A stretch of 64,000 nucleotides of DNA from an uncultured Candidatus Saccharibacteria bacterium (GTDB lineage Bacteria; Patescibacteriota; Minisyncoccia; Phycocordibacterales; UBA9973). Every line of letters begins with the position of its first letter. Positions within the stretch are counted from its first letter, which is position 1. Made by a program: the position numbers and the translations under genes. The stretch is from NCBI GenBank assembly GCA_964645245.1, contig CAZYBS010000003.1, positions 9,366 to 73,365 of the forward strand, read 5' to 3'. The notes beneath the pieces are model-generated. The model was not told where the DNA came from, did not search any database, and worked only from the letters and a program-made list of their open reading frames with translations. Shown here in pieces: positions 48,221 through 61,534 of the stretch.

Positions 48221-48296
48221 TGGAGCCGCCTCTCGGACTCGAACCGAGGACCGACTGTTTACAAAACAGTTGCTCTACCAACTGAGCTAAGGCGGC
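48221..48296 (-). tRNA. tRNA-Thr (anticodon UGU); CCA encoded
   Basis: Reverse complement GCCGCCT-TA-GCTC-AGTTGGTA-GAGC-A-ACTGT-TTTGTAA-ACAGT-CGGTC-CTCGG-TTCGAGT-CCGAG-AGGCGGC-T-CCA with all stems perfect. Confidence 0.9.
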
Positions 48297-55014: not shown

Positions 55015-56412
55015 GTGAAGAAAAAAATAAAAAAACCGGGGAAAAATTGGAAGAAATTTTGGAAGCTGGGAAATGAAGAATTCAACACCCAGTATTTTGA
55101 CGTCACTAAAGACGGGGAGCTGGTAGTACAAGAAGGGAATTATGTTTACAACCTAAATGAGATTGTAAAAAAATACGGCACGCCCACCGAAATCGTTTTT
55201 CCTTTTATCCTGGAGGAACGTTTGGAAGATTTACAGGACTACTTCCGCGCTTATATGAAAATAGGGGGATATCACGGAAAGTTTTATTATCATTACCCCA
55301 TGAAGGTTAACCAAAATAAGGAGTTTATCCTGCCGCTCATTTCCGAAGGAGCGCATATGGAGGTTGGCTCAGTTAATGAATTATGGCTGGTGAAAAAGAT
55401 GTGGGAAGGCGAGAAGTTTCATTCCAAAATTCGAGTATTTTGCAATGGGCCAAAAACAGAAGCCTACATAAAACTGATAGAGGAATTGCGGTCTAAAAAT
55501 CTGTCAATTATGCCGATTATAGAAGATGAACATGAGCTGGAGAGGTTTGCCAAATATAAAGGGGACGTAGGTATTCGGGTTAATTTGGATACCAAAGCGG
55601 ATACTCACTGGGATAAAAGAGTTGACCGTTTTGGTTTTTCCAACAAGGAGCTTTTAGACCTACCGAAGATGAAAAATTTAAAAGTCCTTCATTATCACAT
55701 CGGCTCACAGGTCAATAGCGCTACGAGCATAATGAAGCCTATTGAAGAAGCGATGAATTTGTATATAAAATTGGTGAAAAATCATCCTAATTTAGATACT
55801 CTGGACGTGGGCGGAGGCTTTGGTGTCCCTTATGAGAAAAAATCTTTTTATGGGGCCAAAAAAGTTTCTGAGAAAATAGTTCGCCTGCTAAAAAAGATGA
55901 GCGATGATACCGATATTCGGCATCCGAATTTAGCTGTAGAATGGGGTAGATATATTGTCGCACCGGCCCAAATCACTATTTACAATATTATTGCGGAAAA
56001 ACCGATTCCGAAAGCGAATGCGAAGTCCTGGTATGTGATTGACGGAAGTTTTATGAATGACCTTTTAGACACTTGGGCCATTCATCAAAAATGGCATATC
56101 GTTCCGGTGAACCACGCCAATACTTCTGCTTTTAAGAGTGTCTGGCTGGCCGGGAGCTCTTGCGACTCGGATGATAAATATACATCCGGTGGTAGCTATA
56201 TATTGATGCCAAAGTTGAAAGAAGGCGAAGCTCAATACTTGGCAATTTTTGATACTGGCGCTTATCAGGACGCTCTGGCTTCGCATCATTGCTTGCTTTC
56301 TTCACCCGCTAAATTGATTGCTCAAGACGGCACCATAAAAATTGCCCGCAAGCGCGAGACTCCCGACTCCATCGGCAAGCTCTTCGGCTGGAACAATGGG
56401 GACCACAAATGA
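55015..56412 (+). CDS. PLP-dependent Orn/DAP/Arg decarboxylase family enzyme (probable arginine or ornithine decarboxylase for polyamine synthesis)
   Basis: PLP-Lys region HYPMKVN, LHYHIGSQ, Gly-rich DVGGGFGVPY, C-terminal beta-barrel with SSCDSDD. Confidence 0.7.
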   Translation: MKKKIKKPGKNWKKFWKLGNEEFNTQYFDVTKDGELVVQEGNYVYNLNEIVKKYGTPTEIVFPFILEERLEDLQDYFRAYMKIGGYHGKFYYHYPMKVNQNKEFILPLISEGAHMEVGSVNELWLVKKMWEGEKFHSKIRVFCNGPKTEAYIKLIEELRSKNLSIMPIIEDEHELERFAKYKGDVGIRVNLDTKADTHWDKRVDRFGFSNKELLDLPKMKNLKVLHYHIGSQVNSATSIMKPIEEAMNLYIKLVKNHPNLDTLDVGGGFGVPYEKKSFYGAKKVSEKIVRLLKKMSDDTDIRHPNLAVEWGRYIVAPAQITIYNIIAEKPIPKANAKSWYVIDGSFMNDLLDTWAIHQKWHIVPVNHANTSAFKSVWLAGSSCDSDDKYTSGGSYILMPKLKEGEAQYLAIFDTGAYQDALASHHCLLSSPAKLIAQDGTIKIARKRETPDSIGKLFGWNNGDHK

Positions 56413-56452
56413 ATCAGGTTCTAGTAGTTAAATTCTAGGTTTTAGAATATAT

Positions 56453-56923
56453 ATGAAAAATTATTTTATTGGTTTTGCTGTATTAGTTATTTTTTTTGTA
56501 TCTTATCACTCTTGGACGGCCGTCAATTTTGATAATATAAAATATGTTCGGATAGCCGGGCAGAATATTAAAGTTGAACTTGCTTTGACCGAAAGGGAGC
56601 AAGAAAAAGGGCTTTCCGGAAGAAGCGGACTCGAAGAAGATAAAGGCATGTTGTTTGTTTTTTCCGCCCAAGGCGGATTCGCCTCTGGCGGAGATAAAGC
56701 TAACCACCCTAGATTTTGGATGAAGGATATGAATTTCGCAATAGATATAATTTGGATTGGGGAGGATTTACGAATAGTTTACATAAAAAAAGATGCTCGG
56801 CCCGAATCTTATCCGGAAACTTTCGGCTCTGACCAAAATTCCAAATATGTTTTGGAAGTTATTGCCGGTTTCGCGGATAAAAATAATTTGAAAAAAGGGG
56901 ATAGGGTGAAGCTCGTTTACTAA
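56453..56923 (+). CDS. DUF192 (COG1430) family protein with signal/TM N-terminus
   Basis: IKVELALTEREQEKGLSGRSGLEEDKGMLFVF...MKDMNFAIDIIWIGED is the DUF192 core. Confidence 0.65.
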   Translation: MKNYFIGFAVLVIFFVSYHSWTAVNFDNIKYVRIAGQNIKVELALTEREQEKGLSGRSGLEEDKGMLFVFSAQGGFASGGDKANHPRFWMKDMNFAIDIIWIGEDLRIVYIKKDARPESYPETFGSDQNSKYVLEVIAGFADKNNLKKGDRVKLVY

Positions 56924-57017
56924 CAAAAGTAAAAAATTCTACTATAAAACCGATCGGAATTGTGGTAGAATTAAGAAAATTACAAAAGAAAACTCCGCCT
57001 TATGGGCGGAGTCTCCA

Positions 57018-57330
57018 TTTTTTGTTGCAGGCATCTATAAGCCGAATTCTGTATTCCCGACGCAAGGTCGGGATGATAGCAATTTGTCTAGGTCCGGCAT
57101 TACTGCGGGACTCAAGCGATTCTTCCCTCGATTTCTCTCGGGGCACGATCTTGCACAGGAGTAAGTATTTAGCCGTTTCAGCCGGACTTAACCGGGTCGT
57201 TTCTGTTCGCAACTCCGTATCACTACGGAAGGGTATTACCCTCTACTTTTTCCCGCTAAGCGGGATCTGTGTTCGGACTTTCCTCCCCTCACCTCTAGAG
57301 GTGAGGGGTAGCTATCCAATACCTGCTCAG
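57018..57330 (-). ncRNA. rnpB: RNase P RNA, reduced bacterial form (about 310 nt)
   Basis: On the minus strand: P4 5' strand GGAGGAAAGTCCGAACACAG and P4 3' strand ATACAGAATTCGGCTTATAGATG (consensus GGAAAGUCCGG...ACAGAAnnCGGCUUA). P1 pairing GAGCAGGTA/GATGCCTGC. Terminator CTCCGCCcataaGGCGGAG+TTTT at the 3' end. Putative promoter TTGCGA-17-TGTAAACT at 57333-57361. Confidence 0.8.
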
Positions 57331-57494
57331 AAAGTTTACAATACTTGCATTCTTTTCGCAAGTATGCTATACTCATTTTGTGAGTGTGAGGTAAGACTCA
57401 CATTTATCGTAAACAACATAAGTGCCACAAAAGTCCGCTGATGAGGCGGACTTTTGTTTGCAAGTAAGTTTAAAATATACTATTCTAAATTAAA

Positions 57495-58397
57495 ATGATA
57501 GACTCAATTTTTAGCGCGAAAAATATGGATGAAGCTGATGCAGTTATCGTTTCTGCCCCATATGAGAAGACAGCTTCCAGCAGAAAGGGTACAGCCAAAG
57601 GCCCGAAGGCCATCATCCATATGCTTGATTCAAAGCTGGAGCTTTTTGATCGCAATTACAAAATACAACCTTGCGATAAAATAAAAATCGCCGTTAAGGA
57701 TTTAGGAAATATTAATTCATTTTCACCAAGGAAAGCACTCCTGAAGATTGCGACTGAATGTGGGAAAATTTTAGATAAGAATAAATTTGTATTTTTACTT
57801 GGTGGCGAGCACTCAGTCTCGCTCGGACTCTTTCAGGCGCTGGCTAGAAAAGTAAACCCAAAAGATGTGACCATTTTACACATAGACGCGCACTGCGACT
57901 TGCGCAACGATGACTCAGACTTCAGTTTGAAGCCAACCGAATTTTCACATGGATGTGTATTGCGTCGCGCTCATGAACTCGGATATAATCTAGTCCAAGT
58001 TGGTATCCGCACATATTACAAAGGTGAATATAAATATTTTATTAAACACAAAAATACCATAAAAGTGTTTGAATGGGGTAATGGCAAGAAAATCCCAAGC
58101 ACTGCGGAAATATTAAAATCAATTAAAACTAAAAAAGTTTATATTACAATAGACGCGGATGGTTTTGACCCGGCTTATATGCCCGGTACTGGTACAGCTG
58201 TGCAGGGAGGATTAGAATGGTGGTATGGGGTAGAACTCATTGAGCGCGTCATAGACCAAAAAGAATTAATTGGAGCTGACATCGTGGAAGTTTCTCCGAT
58301 GCGCGATTCTATTCTCACCGAATACGGCGCCGCCCAGCTTTGCTACACGATGATAGCGCATAAGTTCAGGGGAAAATTAAAACCTAAACTAATTTAG
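57495..58397 (+). CDS. Ureohydrolase (arginase/agmatinase family)
   Basis: Metal-binding motifs GGEHSVSLG, ILHIDAHCDLRND, ITIDADGFDPAYMPGTGT. Confidence 0.8.
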   Translation: MIDSIFSAKNMDEADAVIVSAPYEKTASSRKGTAKGPKAIIHMLDSKLELFDRNYKIQPCDKIKIAVKDLGNINSFSPRKALLKIATECGKILDKNKFVFLLGGEHSVSLGLFQALARKVNPKDVTILHIDAHCDLRNDDSDFSLKPTEFSHGCVLRRAHELGYNLVQVGIRTYYKGEYKYFIKHKNTIKVFEWGNGKKIPSTAEILKSIKTKKVYITIDADGFDPAYMPGTGTAVQGGLEWWYGVELIERVIDQKELIGADIVEVSPMRDSILTEYGAAQLCYTMIAHKFRGKLKPKLI

Positions 58398-58400
58398 ATT

Positions 58401-59447
58401 TTAATTTAAACCACATTCTTCTATCAATTTATTTGCTTCTGCAGGATTTGCTTTGCATTCCAGAAGCGCGGAGAGGATCAGGGGAGCCACGATCGTGGCA
58501 TCAGATTCTATGATGAACATCGGGGTGTCTTTGGTCAGTTTGTCCCAGGTGATTTTTTCATTCGGGGTTGCGCCGGAATATGAGCCATAGGAAGTGGTAG
58601 AATCGGAAATCTGGCAGAAGTACGCCCAGGGCCTGGCTTTAACTTTCATGTCGTATTTGAGCGATGGCACGACGCATATCGGAAAATCCCCGGCGATGCC
58701 TCCGCCGATCTGGAAAAAGCCTATTCCTTGCCCCCGGGAGAGCTTTTGGTATTGGTCGTAGAATGCCGTCATGTATTCTATGCCGCTCTTGGCGATAGAT
58801 GCATTTGCATCACCGAGCTTCACATGCGAGGCGAAGATATTGCCGAAGGTTGAGTCTTCATAGCCGGGCACAACCATGGGAAGATTATTCTCGGCGGCGG
58901 CCAAGAGCCAGCATTCTTCCATTTTGCCTTCGTGCTTTTTCTTATCAATCGCTTGAATCAAATCATAAAAATATTCGTGCCAGAATTTGCGGGTGCCTTC
59001 TTTGGTGGCCTTTTCCCAAACAGGTACGATAAGTCCCTCCACGGCGCGGAAAGCTTCATCTTCGGGAATGCTGGTATCCGTCACTCGGCGCATCCGGTTC
59101 TTCAATATCTTCGCGTCGTCTTCTTTGGTAAAATAGCGATAATTAGGGAAATCTTTGTAGCTATCATGCGCTACCAGACGGAAGAGTGATTCTTCCAGGT
59201 TCGCGCCGGTGACAGACAGGCCGTGGATTAGTCCGTGGCGGATTGCTGGTGCCAGGGTGATGCCAAGCTGGGCGGAAGACATCGCTCCGGCCACGGTCCA
59301 GAACATTTTGCCGCCTTTTTCCAAATGCTTCCAATAGGCAACCAGCGCGTCACGCGTCACGCGCGAGTTGAAGTTTTTGTAATTTTTGAGAATGAATTCT
59401 AATGTTGGAAGATTTGTGTTCATAATATAATAATAATTGTAGAGCAA
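58401..59447 (-). CDS. Deoxyhypusine synthase-like protein (homospermidine synthase candidate)
   Basis: DHS-family length and Gly-rich NAD loop QIGGGIAGDFP, VTGANLEE. Adjacent to the decarboxylase and agmatinase genes. Confidence 0.65.
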   Translation of the reverse strand: MLYNYYYIMNTNLPTLEFILKNYKNFNSRVTRDALVAYWKHLEKGGKMFWTVAGAMSSAQLGITLAPAIRHGLIHGLSVTGANLEESLFRLVAHDSYKDFPNYRYFTKEDDAKILKNRMRRVTDTSIPEDEAFRAVEGLIVPVWEKATKEGTRKFWHEYFYDLIQAIDKKKHEGKMEECWLLAAAENNLPMVVPGYEDSTFGNIFASHVKLGDANASIAKSGIEYMTAFYDQYQKLSRGQGIGFFQIGGGIAGDFPICVVPSLKYDMKVKARPWAYFCQISDSTTSYGSYSGATPNEKITWDKLTKDTPMFIIESDATIVAPLILSALLECKANPAEANKLIEECGLN

Positions 59448-60335: not shown

Positions 60336-60394
60336 ATGGAATAATTGTACAAAAAGAGACTGCACAATGCAAGTTGCCTTGATGTATCTTTTTG

Positions 60395-60467
60395 TGGACC
60401 CTAGCGGTCTCGAACCGCTCACCTCCTCATTGCAAATGAGGCGCTCTACCAGATGAGCTAAGGGCCC
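60395..60467 (-). tRNA. tRNA-Ala (anticodon UGC) with G3:U70; CCA not encoded
   Basis: Reverse complement GGGCCCT-TA-GCTC-ATCTGGTA-GAGC-G-CCTCA-TTTGCAA-TGAGG-AGGTG-AGCGG-TTCGAGA-CCGCT-AGGGTCC-A. Confidence 0.88.
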
Positions 60468-60488
60468 CTCTGCTCGCGAGCAGAGGGG

Positions 60489-60761
60489 CTAAGGGCCCTC
60501 CACTTGCAAGCCAGACGAATTCTTTATTCTCTTTTTCAACTCTTTATATCCAGCGGAAAAACGTTTCAACATGTCTTCGCGATGTTTGGCGTCAGCTTGT
60601 GCTTTATATGCTTCATAATAAACAAGCTGAAAAGGTGCTTTGTGTTTTGTTGAAACATTTTTACCGCTATTATGTTCCACCAAACGCCTTTTCAAATCAT
60701 TTGTGTATCCAATGTATAACTCCTTTAATCTAGCACTCTTTAATACGTAAACATAATACAT
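60489..60761 (-). CDS. Small GIY-YIG nuclease-domain protein (90 aa) immediately upstream of tRNA-Ala
   Basis: YYVYVLKSARLKELYIGYTNDLKRRLVEHNSG is the GIY-YIG core. Stop lies 21 nt from the tRNA 5' end. The gap holds the palindrome CCTCTGCTCGCGAGCAGAGG flanked by a duplicated GCTAAGGGCCC. Confidence 0.7.
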   Translation of the reverse strand: MYYVYVLKSARLKELYIGYTNDLKRRLVEHNSGKNVSTKHKAPFQLVYYEAYKAQADAKHREDMLKRFSAGYKELKKRIKNSSGLQVEGP

Positions 60762-61003
60762 GTTTTTGTATTCTACATTCTATCTTATTTTCTCAATAAT
60801 GCAAATTTTGTTGTTGTTTTTTCCGTCATTTCTGGTACTATGGTAAAAGTTCTTTTTAAAATAAATAAATTCCGGGGTAGTTGAAATACGATAGTATTTC
60901 AAAGGCGGAGGCACGAAAGGTGCCGAGTCGGGGTCGCGAGATTTTTCAGTAGAAAAATACTTGTGACCAGCGGTGTCCGCTGACCTATCTCGAATGAATA
61001 AAT

Positions 61004-61323
61004 TCCGGGGTAGCTCAGCGGTAGAGCGATCGCCTGTAGAGAGATGCAGCTTCCTAAAGAAACTTAGGAATGAAAACAAGGTGAATTCGGGGAAGCCCTT
61101 CGAGATAAACTCTCAGGGTAATCCCGAGCCAAGCTCTGGTAAGCCAGAGAAGGTGTAGAGACTATCCATTTATGGAGTACATCAACACTAAATGTTGATG
61201 GAAGCGCCTTGCTCCTAAACTTATAGCGCAGGCTATGAATATGGAGATGATATAGTCCACACTTCTAGTAATAGGAGATAAAGTGTAAGCGATTGGTCGT
61301 AGGTTCGATCCCTACCCCCGGAG
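61004..61323 (+). tRNA. tRNA-Asn (anticodon GUU) interrupted by a 248-nt group I intron in the anticodon loop (exons 61004-61037 and 61286-61323)
   Basis: Exons: TCCGGGG-TA-GCTC-AGCGGTA-GAGC-G-ATCGC-CTGT|TAA-GCGAT-TGGTC-GTAGG-TTCGATC-CCTAC-CCCCGGA-G. The spliced loop CUGUUAA and discriminator G73 match bacterial tRNA-Asn. Confidence 0.75.
61038..61285 (+). ncRNA. Group I self-splicing intron (IC3-like, as in bacterial tRNA introns)
   Basis: P7 strands GTAGAGACTATCC and GATGATATAGTCC. P4/P6 conserved ACTCTCAGGGTAATCCCGAGCCAAGC (compare cyanobacterial tRNA-Leu intron CUCAGGGAAACC...AAUCCUGAGCCAAGCC). IGS GCAG pairs with exon CUGU with U.G at the 5' splice site. Terminal omega-G at 61285. Confidence 0.75.
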
Positions 61324-61534
61324 CTCGTAAAAATCTTAGGTCGCTAGAAATGGCGGCCTTTGATTTTTTGAGCTACGGGGAGAAAGCAAAATGTTTTGCT
61401 TTCGTGTAGGGAGCGAAAAGCTTTTGTGTCTTTTTAGAAACTTGTTTAAAAAAAGTACAAAAGGTATACTGCCCCTGTAAGGGGAGATAACCTACCCCCG
61501 GAGCCAAATTAGATAAATGTAACAATCTAAAATT

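Follow-up and report, generated by a model that had tools for sequence, protein, structure and literature searches.

A tRNA-Asn(GUU) gene split between positions 35 and 36 by a further group I intron of the Asn.4Ug class, and the structured elements that flank it

Introduction

Which tRNA is encoded by a gene whose anticodon loop is interrupted by 248 nt, between which positions is it spliced, and is the arrangement new? These questions are raised by positions 61004-61323 of a 64-kb stretch of DNA, the whole of which is referred to as the window in this work. A sequence-only reading of the window had proposed a tRNA-Asn(GUU) gene that is split by a group I intron and had described the Asn host and the splice site between positions 35 and 36 as unusual.

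Each testable structural element of that reading was borne out; only its framing is outdated. Williams (2020; bioRxiv 10.1101/2020.01.27.920355) raised the bacterial tRNA settings of group I introns from four classical settings to 21. The seed alignment of that work includes the classes 'Asn.4Ug', 'Asp.4Ug', and 'Tyr.4Ug', where position 4 denotes the site between tRNA positions 35 and 36 (35/36). The work of Nakagawa et al. (preprint July 2025, 10.1101/2025.07.03.662931; mSystems January 2026, PMC13011429) likewise deals mainly with the Asn host and the 35/36 site. Among 95 complete Patescibacteria genomes, 15 tRNA-Asn(GUU) genes and 3 tRNA-Asp genes were reported to carry group I introns at 35/36 (PMC13011429). 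According to the same paper, 25 of 28 introns at this site belonged to subgroup IA, and most lacked homing endonuclease genes. Precise GTP-dependent self-splicing at 35/36 was demonstrated in vitro for two Patescibacteria introns, one from tRNA-Asn and one from tRNA-Asp, and mutation of the terminal G to C stopped exon ligation (PMC13011429). The class Asn.4Ug was thus catalogued in 2020 and its in vitro splicing was shown in 2025-26, so the arrangement was already known. The intron described here is a further member of this catalogued and experimentally validated class and, in biological terms, one more instance of it.

We assign a probability of about 0.93 to the reading that the locus is a functional tRNA-Asn(GUU) gene that is split at 35/36 by a 248-nt, ORF-less, IA-like group I intron of the class Asn.4Ug. 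The evidence for this reading, the rival explanations, and the elements that flank the gene are presented below.

Identification and fold of the group I intron

A search with the Rfam group I covariance model, which the sequence-only reading had suggested as a check, returned a match to RF00028 at 61028-61278 (+) that spans model positions 1-253 of 253. The match scored 58.0 bits, where the gathering score is 50, and its E-value of 4e-12 over the whole window and 6e-14 in a local search lies well outside chance expectation. The RF00028 model contains no bacterial seed sequences. The intron itself occupies 61038-61285 (+), which is the extent of 248 nt that had been proposed, and it ends in G; its identification rests on the RF00028 match and on covariation over 30 homologues. 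An ORF check detected no homing endonuclease gene inside the intron, where the longest stop-free stretch is 66 codons. The strings that had been quoted as evidence of a group I core are all present, namely GAGACTATCC (61158-67), GATATAGTCC (61249-58), and CTCAGGGTAATCCCGAGCCAAGC (61112-34).

The fold from P1 to P9, including the P3/P7 pseudoknot, was drawn by hand on the window sequence and was then tested on homologues. All of its helices lie on the + strand. P1 (61034-61049) pairs the exon end CUGU and the first intron nucleotide A (61034-38) with UGCAG (61045-49) around a GAGAGA loop, as supported by the RF00028 alignment and by counts over 30 sequences. The guide sequence inside P1, GCAG (61046-49), is paired to CUGU and places the wobble pair U35 (61037)·G61046 at the 5' splice site, as had been claimed. 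P2 (61051-57/61064-70) is followed by the 5' strand of P3 (61077-83), P4 (61087-92/61122-27), P5 (61095-99/61115-19), P6 (61128-30/61152-54), and P6a (61134-39/61144-49). The 5' strand of P7 reads G-A-GACUA (61158-61164) with A61159 bulged and pairs with 61253-58; these strands correspond to the R and S elements of RF00028, and the conserved G·C pairs that characterise the guanosine-binding helix are found in it.

Two helices, P7.1 (61165-68/61173-76) and P7.2 (61180-87/61193-61200), stand out as an insertion when aligned to the RF00028 consensus and are peripheral helices that are typical of subgroup IA introns. The region 61205-61258 then comprises the 3' strand of P3 (61205-11), P8 (61212-15/61243-46, with an inner stem at 61221-27/61232-38), J8/7, and the 3' strand of P7 (UAGUCC, 61253-58). 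P9.0 is formed by 61259-60 with 61283-84, and P9 (61262-67/61272-77) is a hairpin with a GUAA loop. The terminal guanosine (omega G, 61285) lies directly 3' of P9.0. A P10 that convincingly pairs the guide region with the 3' exon could not be drawn; the exons around tRNA introns are generally taken to be kept together by the anticodon stem.

Covariation among homologous introns

Homologues were identified by scanning one genome per species (GTDB representatives) with the pattern CTGTA...GTGAATTCRRGGAA...CCYGAKCCAAG, and 101 loci were found. The alignment A1 was built from the window intron and its 29 closest introns (30 sequences). In A1, standard pairs fill 89.7% of the cells of the drawn fold, compared with 73.5% after shuffling and 35-44% when the partners are slid by 1-3 columns. 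Double-sided changes were observed in 42 of the 69 pairs. The covariation score of the fold is 0.438 against 0.145 for the control, and none of 500 shuffles reached it. The sequence-only reading had held that a failure to fold into a P1-P9 core with the guanosine-binding site would speak against an intron; the core folds, and the controls fall far lower.

Compensatory changes were seen in P2, P3 (four pairs), P4, P5, P6a, P7.1, P7.2, P8 (three pairs), P9.0, and P9. All four pairs of P7.1 and all eight pairs of P7.2 have changed on both sides among the homologues. P9.0 also covaries, with one pair as AU in 28 sequences and GC in 2, and the other as UA in 15, CG in 7, and AU in 6. This covariation assigns the role of terminal G to 61285 rather than to 61283, and the G is invariant (30/30), in agreement with the terminal G that had been claimed. 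P6, P7, and four of the five P1 pairs do not vary in A1, as given by the per-pair counts. The six P7 pairs are invariant: five are kept in 30/30 sequences, and the sixth is kept in 28/28 because two sequences are gapped. The proposed P7 and P4-P6 core is upheld. Parts of P3, P4, and P6 are uninformative where they are invariant because the search pattern fixed them. Although the search pattern did not contain the guide GCAG, its pairing with CUGU, with the U·G wobble among the pairs, is retained in 30/30 sequences (CG, UA, GC, and UG, each 30/30).

The host tRNA and the splice site

The gene (61004-61323, +) was read from the sequence as two exons. The 5' exon (61004-61037), which carries tRNA positions 1-35, reads TCCGGGG-TA-GCTC-AGCGGTA-GAGC-G-ATCGC-CUGU. 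It comprises the acceptor strand TCCGGGG (61004-10), which pairs with CCCCGGA (61316-22), the D arm (61013-27), one strand of the anticodon stem (ATCGC, 61029-33), and C32 U33 G34 U35 (61034-37) at its end. The 3' exon (61286-61323), which carries positions 36-73, reads U-AA-GCGAT-TGGTC-GTAGG-TTCGATC-CCTAC-CCCCGGA-G. It starts with U36 A37 A38 and contains the other anticodon strand (GCGAT, 61289-93), a variable loop followed by the T arm (61299-61315), and the discriminator G73 (61323). The trinucleotide that follows G73 is CTC, and no CCA is encoded. A hairpin with a T run that resembles an intrinsic terminator (61338-61369, +) begins 15 nt past the tRNA.

Both exons are supported by ARAGORN on the spliced product, which is called tRNA-Asn(gtt), and by identity to intron-less genes. 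Eleven intron-less tRNA-Asn(GUU) genes from metagenomes, five of which were confirmed as tRNA-Asn by ARAGORN, are identical to the product at 64-69 of 72 positions, and all eleven read CCTGTTAAGCG at the junction. The canonical tRNA-Asn(GUU) with the loop CUGUUAA and G73 that the sequence-only reading had assembled is therefore borne out by the sequence, by ARAGORN, and by the intron-less homologues.

The same reading had predicted that standard scanners would miss the gene, and this is the case. Neither default ARAGORN nor the Rfam tRNA model detected the tRNA-Asn gene in the genomic sequence of the 64-kb window, where they returned only tRNA-Ser(GGA), tRNA-Thr(UGU), and tRNA-Ala(UGC). The gene is therefore missed by routine scanning and is also easily mis-called as tRNA-Thr(UGU). 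A genome of this type would appear to be without tRNA-Asn, which would affect completeness estimates, a point that is already in the literature.

The ambiguity with tRNA-Thr arises because two pairs of boundaries have a U before the intron and a G at its end, namely 35/36 (anticodon GUU, Asn) and 33/34 (UGU, Thr). If the same intron were placed two bases upstream, the 5' exon would end at U33 (61035), the intron would end at G61283, and the product would be a tRNA-Thr(UGU), which ARAGORN indeed folds as tRNA-Thr(tgt); ARAGORN and tFind frequently give this label to 35/36 genes (Table 1 of PMC13011429). The choice of 35/36 is based on four observations that are independent of each other. The P1 wobble sits at U35, whereas U33 is in a Watson-Crick U-A pair; the covariation of P9.0 sets the terminal G at 61285; all intron-less homologues have CTGTTAA and not CTTGTAA; and the window has a separate tRNA-Thr(UGU) gene at 48221-48296, which is identical to the alternative product at only 47 of 76 positions. 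The 35/36 junction alone reproduces the CUGUUAA loop of the intron-less genes, and no other shift gives the same product. In addition, G73 and the U1-A72 pair suit tRNA-Asn, and the sequenced in vitro products of homologues give the 35/36 junction (PMC13011429). We therefore regard the placement at 33/34 as extremely improbable, and the splice site between 35 and 36 that had been proposed stands. A tRNA-Tyr(GUA) spliced at 36/37 was also considered and rejected, as it would require an intron that ends in U and a long variable arm.

The locus could instead be a tRNA pseudogene with a decayed, splicing-dead intron, where Asn codons are decoded by a copy that lies outside the window. Partial duplications of the tRNA ends around the locus indicate a history of rearrangement, CCA is unencoded in the gene while the distal copy of its 3' end has CCA, and the RF00028 score of 58 bits, 8 above the cut-off, is below the 68-75 bits of the homologous introns. 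Against decay, all core helices pair here and every column that is invariant in the 30 homologues is retained. The exons adopt the canonical tRNA fold and share 96% identity with intact intron-less genes, and the gene has its own terminator. Intron-bearing and intron-less copies of one anticodon also rarely share a genome (Nakagawa et al., 2026; PMC13011429). We consider such a relic very unlikely and retain the reading of a functional tRNA-Asn(GUU) gene.

Proposed splicing pathway

The following pathway for this gene is based on the group I pathway and on the published assays of homologues. The gene would be transcribed with a long structured leader, and the intron would fold from P1 to P9 about the P3/P7 pseudoknot. 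Free guanosine bound at P7 would attack the bond after U35 (61037), which would be presented by the U·G pair of P1 with the guide GCAG. The terminal G61285, set by P9.0, would then exchange into the guanosine site, and the freed 3'-OH of U35 would attack after G61285, so that U35 and U36 would be ligated to give the GUU anticodon. RNase P would trim the 5' leader; an RNase P RNA gene was identified with Rfam in the same window (57022-57327), 4 kb from the tRNA-Asn gene. Trimming of the 3' end and addition of CCA would probably follow, the latter because CCA is not encoded and CTC follows the gene.

Distribution of related introns

Among the 101 loci, in-silico splicing and ARAGORN resolved a further 70 tRNA-Asn(GUU) and 14 tRNA-Tyr(GUA) genes, all of which have introns at 35/36 that end in G. 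The 70 tRNA-Asn introns are 196-352 nt long with a median of 252 nt. Besides Patescibacteria, over 10 groups of phylum level have introns at 35/36 that are related to that of the window. The labels of the records with Asn cases include Patescibacteria (18), Aminicenantes (12), Elusimicrobia (9), Deltaproteobacteria-type groups (7), 'Eubacteriales' (5), WOR-3/Stahlbacteria (5), Planctomycetota (4), and Chloroflexota (3). The Tyr cases are labelled Omnitrophota in 12 of 14 records.

The closest intron (locus L006) is from a record labelled 'Patescibacteria group bacterium', and near-identical exons were found in MAGs labelled Patescibacteria or Paceibacterota. By this similarity the genome of the window most likely belongs to Patescibacteria, in which the class is reported to be enriched although its members need not come from that phylum. 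One 5' exon sequence precedes the intron at L114 and is part of intron-less genes at L112 and L128, and the intron has therefore been gained or lost among close relatives.

Structured elements that flank the tRNA-Asn gene

Both flanks of the gene carry ORF-less elements that lie outside the intron. The upstream element, U (60860-61003, +), was recognised by its repeat and its fold and consists of a structured insert of about 112 nt between repeats. A 21-nt direct repeat, made up of 10 nt of leader and tRNA nucleotides 1-11, brackets the insert at 60860-80 and 60993-61013, and the RNA fold of U has a z-score of -6.9. Upstream elements that are homologous to U were identified at four other loci (L030, L031, L062, and L084).

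The downstream element, D (61372-61506, +), is an imperfect palindrome that was recognised by its repeats, its fold, and family members elsewhere. The left arm of D copies the 3' end of tRNA-Asn in inverted orientation and is split by a hairpin. The right arm repeats that end exactly and in direct orientation as CCTACCCCCGGAGC (61491-61504), a 14-nt sequence that is also found at 61311-24, and it is followed by CA and so reads ...GGAGCCA. The fold of D has a z-score of -3.95. Relatives of D adjoin tRNA-Asn in other Patescibacteria MAGs, and a metagenome scan identified about 26 more D elements. They are found downstream of intron-bearing and intron-less tRNA-Asn genes alike, at times in tandem arrays. 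RNAalifold on 15 copies of one D subtype gave 54 pairs, 39 of which have compensatory changes. ARAGORN and Rfam detected neither a tRNA nor a group I intron at eight D-bearing metagenome loci, and a strict association of D with tRNA-Asn therefore does not hold. E-value scans of Rfam with U and D matched no family, and two scans of viral contigs for D-element motifs gave 0 matches each.

Other identities were considered for these flanks and set aside. The outer copies of the tRNA ends are not parts of a tmRNA, as none was found by ARAGORN or Rfam. A split tRNA, or an outer tRNA with a giant intron, was rejected as the copies are 11 and 14 nt long and form arms of separate elements. A T-box reading of a GGTGTAC motif was dropped because the element shows no specifier or terminator logic and no tRNA synthetase gene lies downstream of it.

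GIY-YIG genes and copies of tRNA ends

The position that U occupies in the window is taken in other genomes by a co-oriented GIY-YIG gene of about 90 aa that lies upstream of intron-bearing tRNA-Asn or tRNA-Tyr. Small ORFs that consist of the GIY-YIG domain only were found 12 times in 140 loci, and 11 of the 12 lie within 304 nt (<=304 nt) of an intron-bearing tRNA, co-oriented with it, in very different phyla. At loci L100 and L072, the GIY-YIG ORF has a partial copy of the tRNA 5' end on one side and the intact gene on the other. The window has a 90-aa GIY-YIG ORF (60489-60761) that ends inside an 11-nt copy of the 5' end of tRNA-Ala; this copy is followed by a perfect 13-bp palindrome and then by the intact tRNA-Ala gene. 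The partial 5' copies of tRNA-Asn and tRNA-Ala both break at tRNA position 10/11. Partial copies of tRNA ends thus bracket inserts on both sides of tRNA-Asn and upstream of tRNA-Ala, and the genes themselves are intact.

Taken together, these features raise the tentative and, in our view, unlikely reading that the locus records miniature mobile or structured elements that target tRNA ends. The GIY-YIG genes might encode homing endonucleases of the free-standing kind, for which the D arm of tRNA genes would be the cleavage site, and the ORF-less U and D elements might be their non-autonomous or RNA-level derivatives. Repair of breaks in the D arm could then co-convert the anticodon-loop intron that lies 25 nt away. 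Such co-conversion would explain why an intron without endonuclease is present in some tRNA-Asn genes and absent from others whose exons are identical. As an alternative, D may be a new family of structured small RNA that mimics the acceptor/T-arm helix of tRNA-Asn. The flanks may be relevant to the spread of tRNA introns that lack an endonuclease, given a covarying D family that is absent from Rfam and the recurrent GIY-YIG genes at tRNA 5' ends. They are more interesting than the intron and might repay further work.

The window also has an agmatinase-like ORF. A deoxyhypusine-synthase-like ORF gave no match when it was looked up from a TTG start; its start is probably further downstream because a 340-aa product has been called at locus L141.

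Comparison with known systems

The intron shares its host tRNA, its insertion site, and the rule of U(-1) and terminal G with the class Asn.4Ug and with the introns that Nakagawa et al. described in tRNA-Asn and in tRNA-Asp. Its length of 248 nt is comparable to the reported mean of 257 nt over all 333 bacterial tRNA introns and to the median of the 70 Asn cases found here. It is also ORF-less like most members, has P7.1 and P7.2 of the IA type, and presents the same ambiguity with a tRNA-Thr(UGU) annotation. The host genome, judged by its similarity to labelled MAGs, is Patescibacteria-like. Nothing of substance distinguishes the intron from the class, and its sequence is 80% identical to that of the nearest relative found.

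The classical bacterial cases are IC3 introns that are found in tRNA-Leu(UAA) of cyanobacteria (34/35), tRNA-fMet (33/34), tRNA-Ile(CAU) of Azoarcus, and tRNA-Arg(CCU) (36/37). Like them, the intron is small and ORF-less, is located in the anticodon loop, and would be self-splicing. We take these introns, in line with the Williams seed alignment, to share a very similar P3-P4-P6-J6/7-P7 core (AAUUCGGGGAA..AAUCCCGAGCCAAG..GGUGUAGAGACUA). The host tRNA and the insertion position are different, and only the intron described here has P7.1 and P7.2 between P7 and the 3' strand of P3. The comparison with classical cases that the sequence-only reading had drawn needs a small correction, as P7.1 and P7.2, which are present and covary here, fit an IA assignment and not IC3; formal subgroup assignment in the literature is made with subgroup covariance models.

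The 14 introns at 35/36 of tRNA-Tyr(GUA), mainly from Omnitrophota, share the core motifs, the CUGU|A 5' junction, and the insertion position. They differ in that their host is a tRNA-Tyr with a long variable arm and their 3' exon begins with A, whereas it begins with U here. One such Tyr case at 35/36 is listed in Table 1 of PMC13011429.

The flanks resemble two other known systems. As with SegB of phage T4, a free-standing GIY-YIG endonuclease in tRNA clusters, small GIY-YIG ORFs adjoin tRNA genes in the same orientation, whereas the genomes here are cellular and not those of phages. Integrative elements that duplicate a tRNA end differ in that the inserts of the window are 110-190 nt long and ORF-less, have no integrase nearby, and are bracketed by inverted as well as direct copies. 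As in such elements, direct repeats of the tRNA end bracket the insert and the tRNA gene is left intact.

An imperfect palindrome with tRNA-Asn 3'-end copies as arms

The D element (61372-61506, forward strand), which lies 3' of the intron-bearing tRNA-Asn gene, is an imperfect palindrome. Both of its arms are copied from the tRNA-Asn 3' end, in inverted orientation on the left and in direct orientation on the right. The copied part consists of the T stem, the acceptor strand and the discriminator base G73, and at times CCA. Modular hairpins are found between the arms.

D elements are 130-190 nt long and were also identified at other loci, that is, in species-representative genomes or metagenome contigs (here denoted by L numbers). 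These include L030:2726-2875 with a second copy in tandem, L084:1856-1994, L097:377-531 and L104:414-567, together with copies in L112, L117, L122, L124, L127, L128 and others. Tandem arrangement was seen at some loci. The D elements are located mostly directly past the terminator of a tRNA-Asn gene, and that gene is either intron-bearing or intron-less. Compensatory changes were found in 39 of the 54 base pairs across 15 copies of one subtype. No matching family was found in Rfam and no match was found in viral contigs.

No CCA is encoded at the end of the intron-bearing tRNA-Asn gene, where CTC directly follows G73 (61323-61326). With the CA that comes next to it, the distal 14-nt copy of the tRNA-Asn 3' end reads G73-CCA (61503-61506). 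Displacement of the original tRNA-Asn 3' end by an insertion would be expected to leave CCA at the distal copy and not at the gene.

Two further RNA observations were made near D elements on metagenome contigs. A match to LOOT RNA (RF03000; 73 bits) is located at L121:2521-2642 on the forward strand, and a D element lies about 1.5 kb away. A non-coding stretch of about 300 nt is conserved in two contigs (L104:100-400 and L134 600-900 on the reverse strand) with a D element directly downstream. ARAGORN and Rfam identified no tRNA, tmRNA or other family in this stretch, which may be another unclassified RNA.

Partial 5' copies of tRNA-Asn and tRNA-Ala

The U element (60860-61003, forward strand) lies 5' of tRNA-Asn and consists of a copy of the tRNA-Asn 5' end and a structured insert. 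The order is promoter, tRNA-Asn 5'-end copy, insert and intact tRNA-Asn gene. The copy comprises the first 11 nt of the tRNA, and 24 nt in other genomes. The insert of about 110-170 nt is ORF-less and highly structured (fold z = -6.9), and its inner part is similar to one module type of the D element. The 21-nt direct repeat of the U element in the window includes 10 nt of the leader. U elements were also identified 90-195 nt upstream of tRNA-Asn in L030, L031, L062 and L084, and as a short remnant in L006.

A copy of the tRNA-Ala 5' end with a palindrome is located at 60464-60498 and is read on the reverse strand. The stop codon of a GIY-YIG ORF falls within this 11-nt copy (GGGCCCTTAGC). Beyond the copy come first a perfect 13-bp palindrome (GCCCCTCTGCTCG/CGAGCAGAGGGGC) and next the intact tRNA-Ala(UGC) gene (60394-60467). 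The partial copies of tRNA-Ala and tRNA-Asn share a break at tRNA position 10/11. The tRNA-Ser and tRNA-Thr genes of the window do not have such 5'-end copies.

Distribution of related introns

More than 10 phylum-level groups contain related group I introns inserted between anticodon positions 35 and 36. In this motif-biased scan, a Patescibacteria label is attached to only 18 of the 70 tRNA-Asn cases. The 14 tRNA-Tyr(GUA) cases (L016, L017, L029, L034, L040, L058, L066, L068, L069, L085, L095, L098, L099 and L101) are hosted mainly by Omnitrophota MAGs. An identical 35-nt tRNA-Asn 5' exon is found with the intron in L114 and without it in L112 and L128, all of which are metagenome contigs. 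This is an intron presence/absence polymorphism among close relatives.

Other features of the window

An RNase P RNA of bacterial class A is encoded at 57022-57327 on the reverse strand and scores 113 bits (cut-off 100). It is only about 306 nt long, with strong shortening of two model regions (from 43 to 3 nt and from 44 to 25 nt), which is consistent with a reduced-genome lineage. Genes of the arginase/agmatinase family (57495-58397) and the deoxyhypusine-synthase family (58401-59447, reverse strand) form a cluster at 55015-59447 together with a DUF192 gene and an arginine/ornithine decarboxylase-like gene (55015-56412). This cluster looks like a polyamine or homospermidine-type module.

GIY-YIG ORFs beside tRNA genes

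The small GIY-YIG ORF of the window is located at 60489-60761 on the reverse strand. Similar ORFs were identified in L013, L016, L027, L039, L048, L070, L072 (two), L082 and L100 (two). These ORFs encode about 85-110 aa and consist of the GIY-YIG domain alone. Among 140 loci, 11 of the 12 GIY-YIG ORFs lie at most 304 nt from an intron-bearing tRNA-Asn or tRNA-Tyr gene and are co-oriented with that gene, and their hosts are spread over very different phyla. The ORF is flanked by a partial 5' tRNA copy and an intact tRNA gene in L100 and L072. These small ORFs may be analogous to SegB of phage T4, a free-standing type of homing endonuclease.
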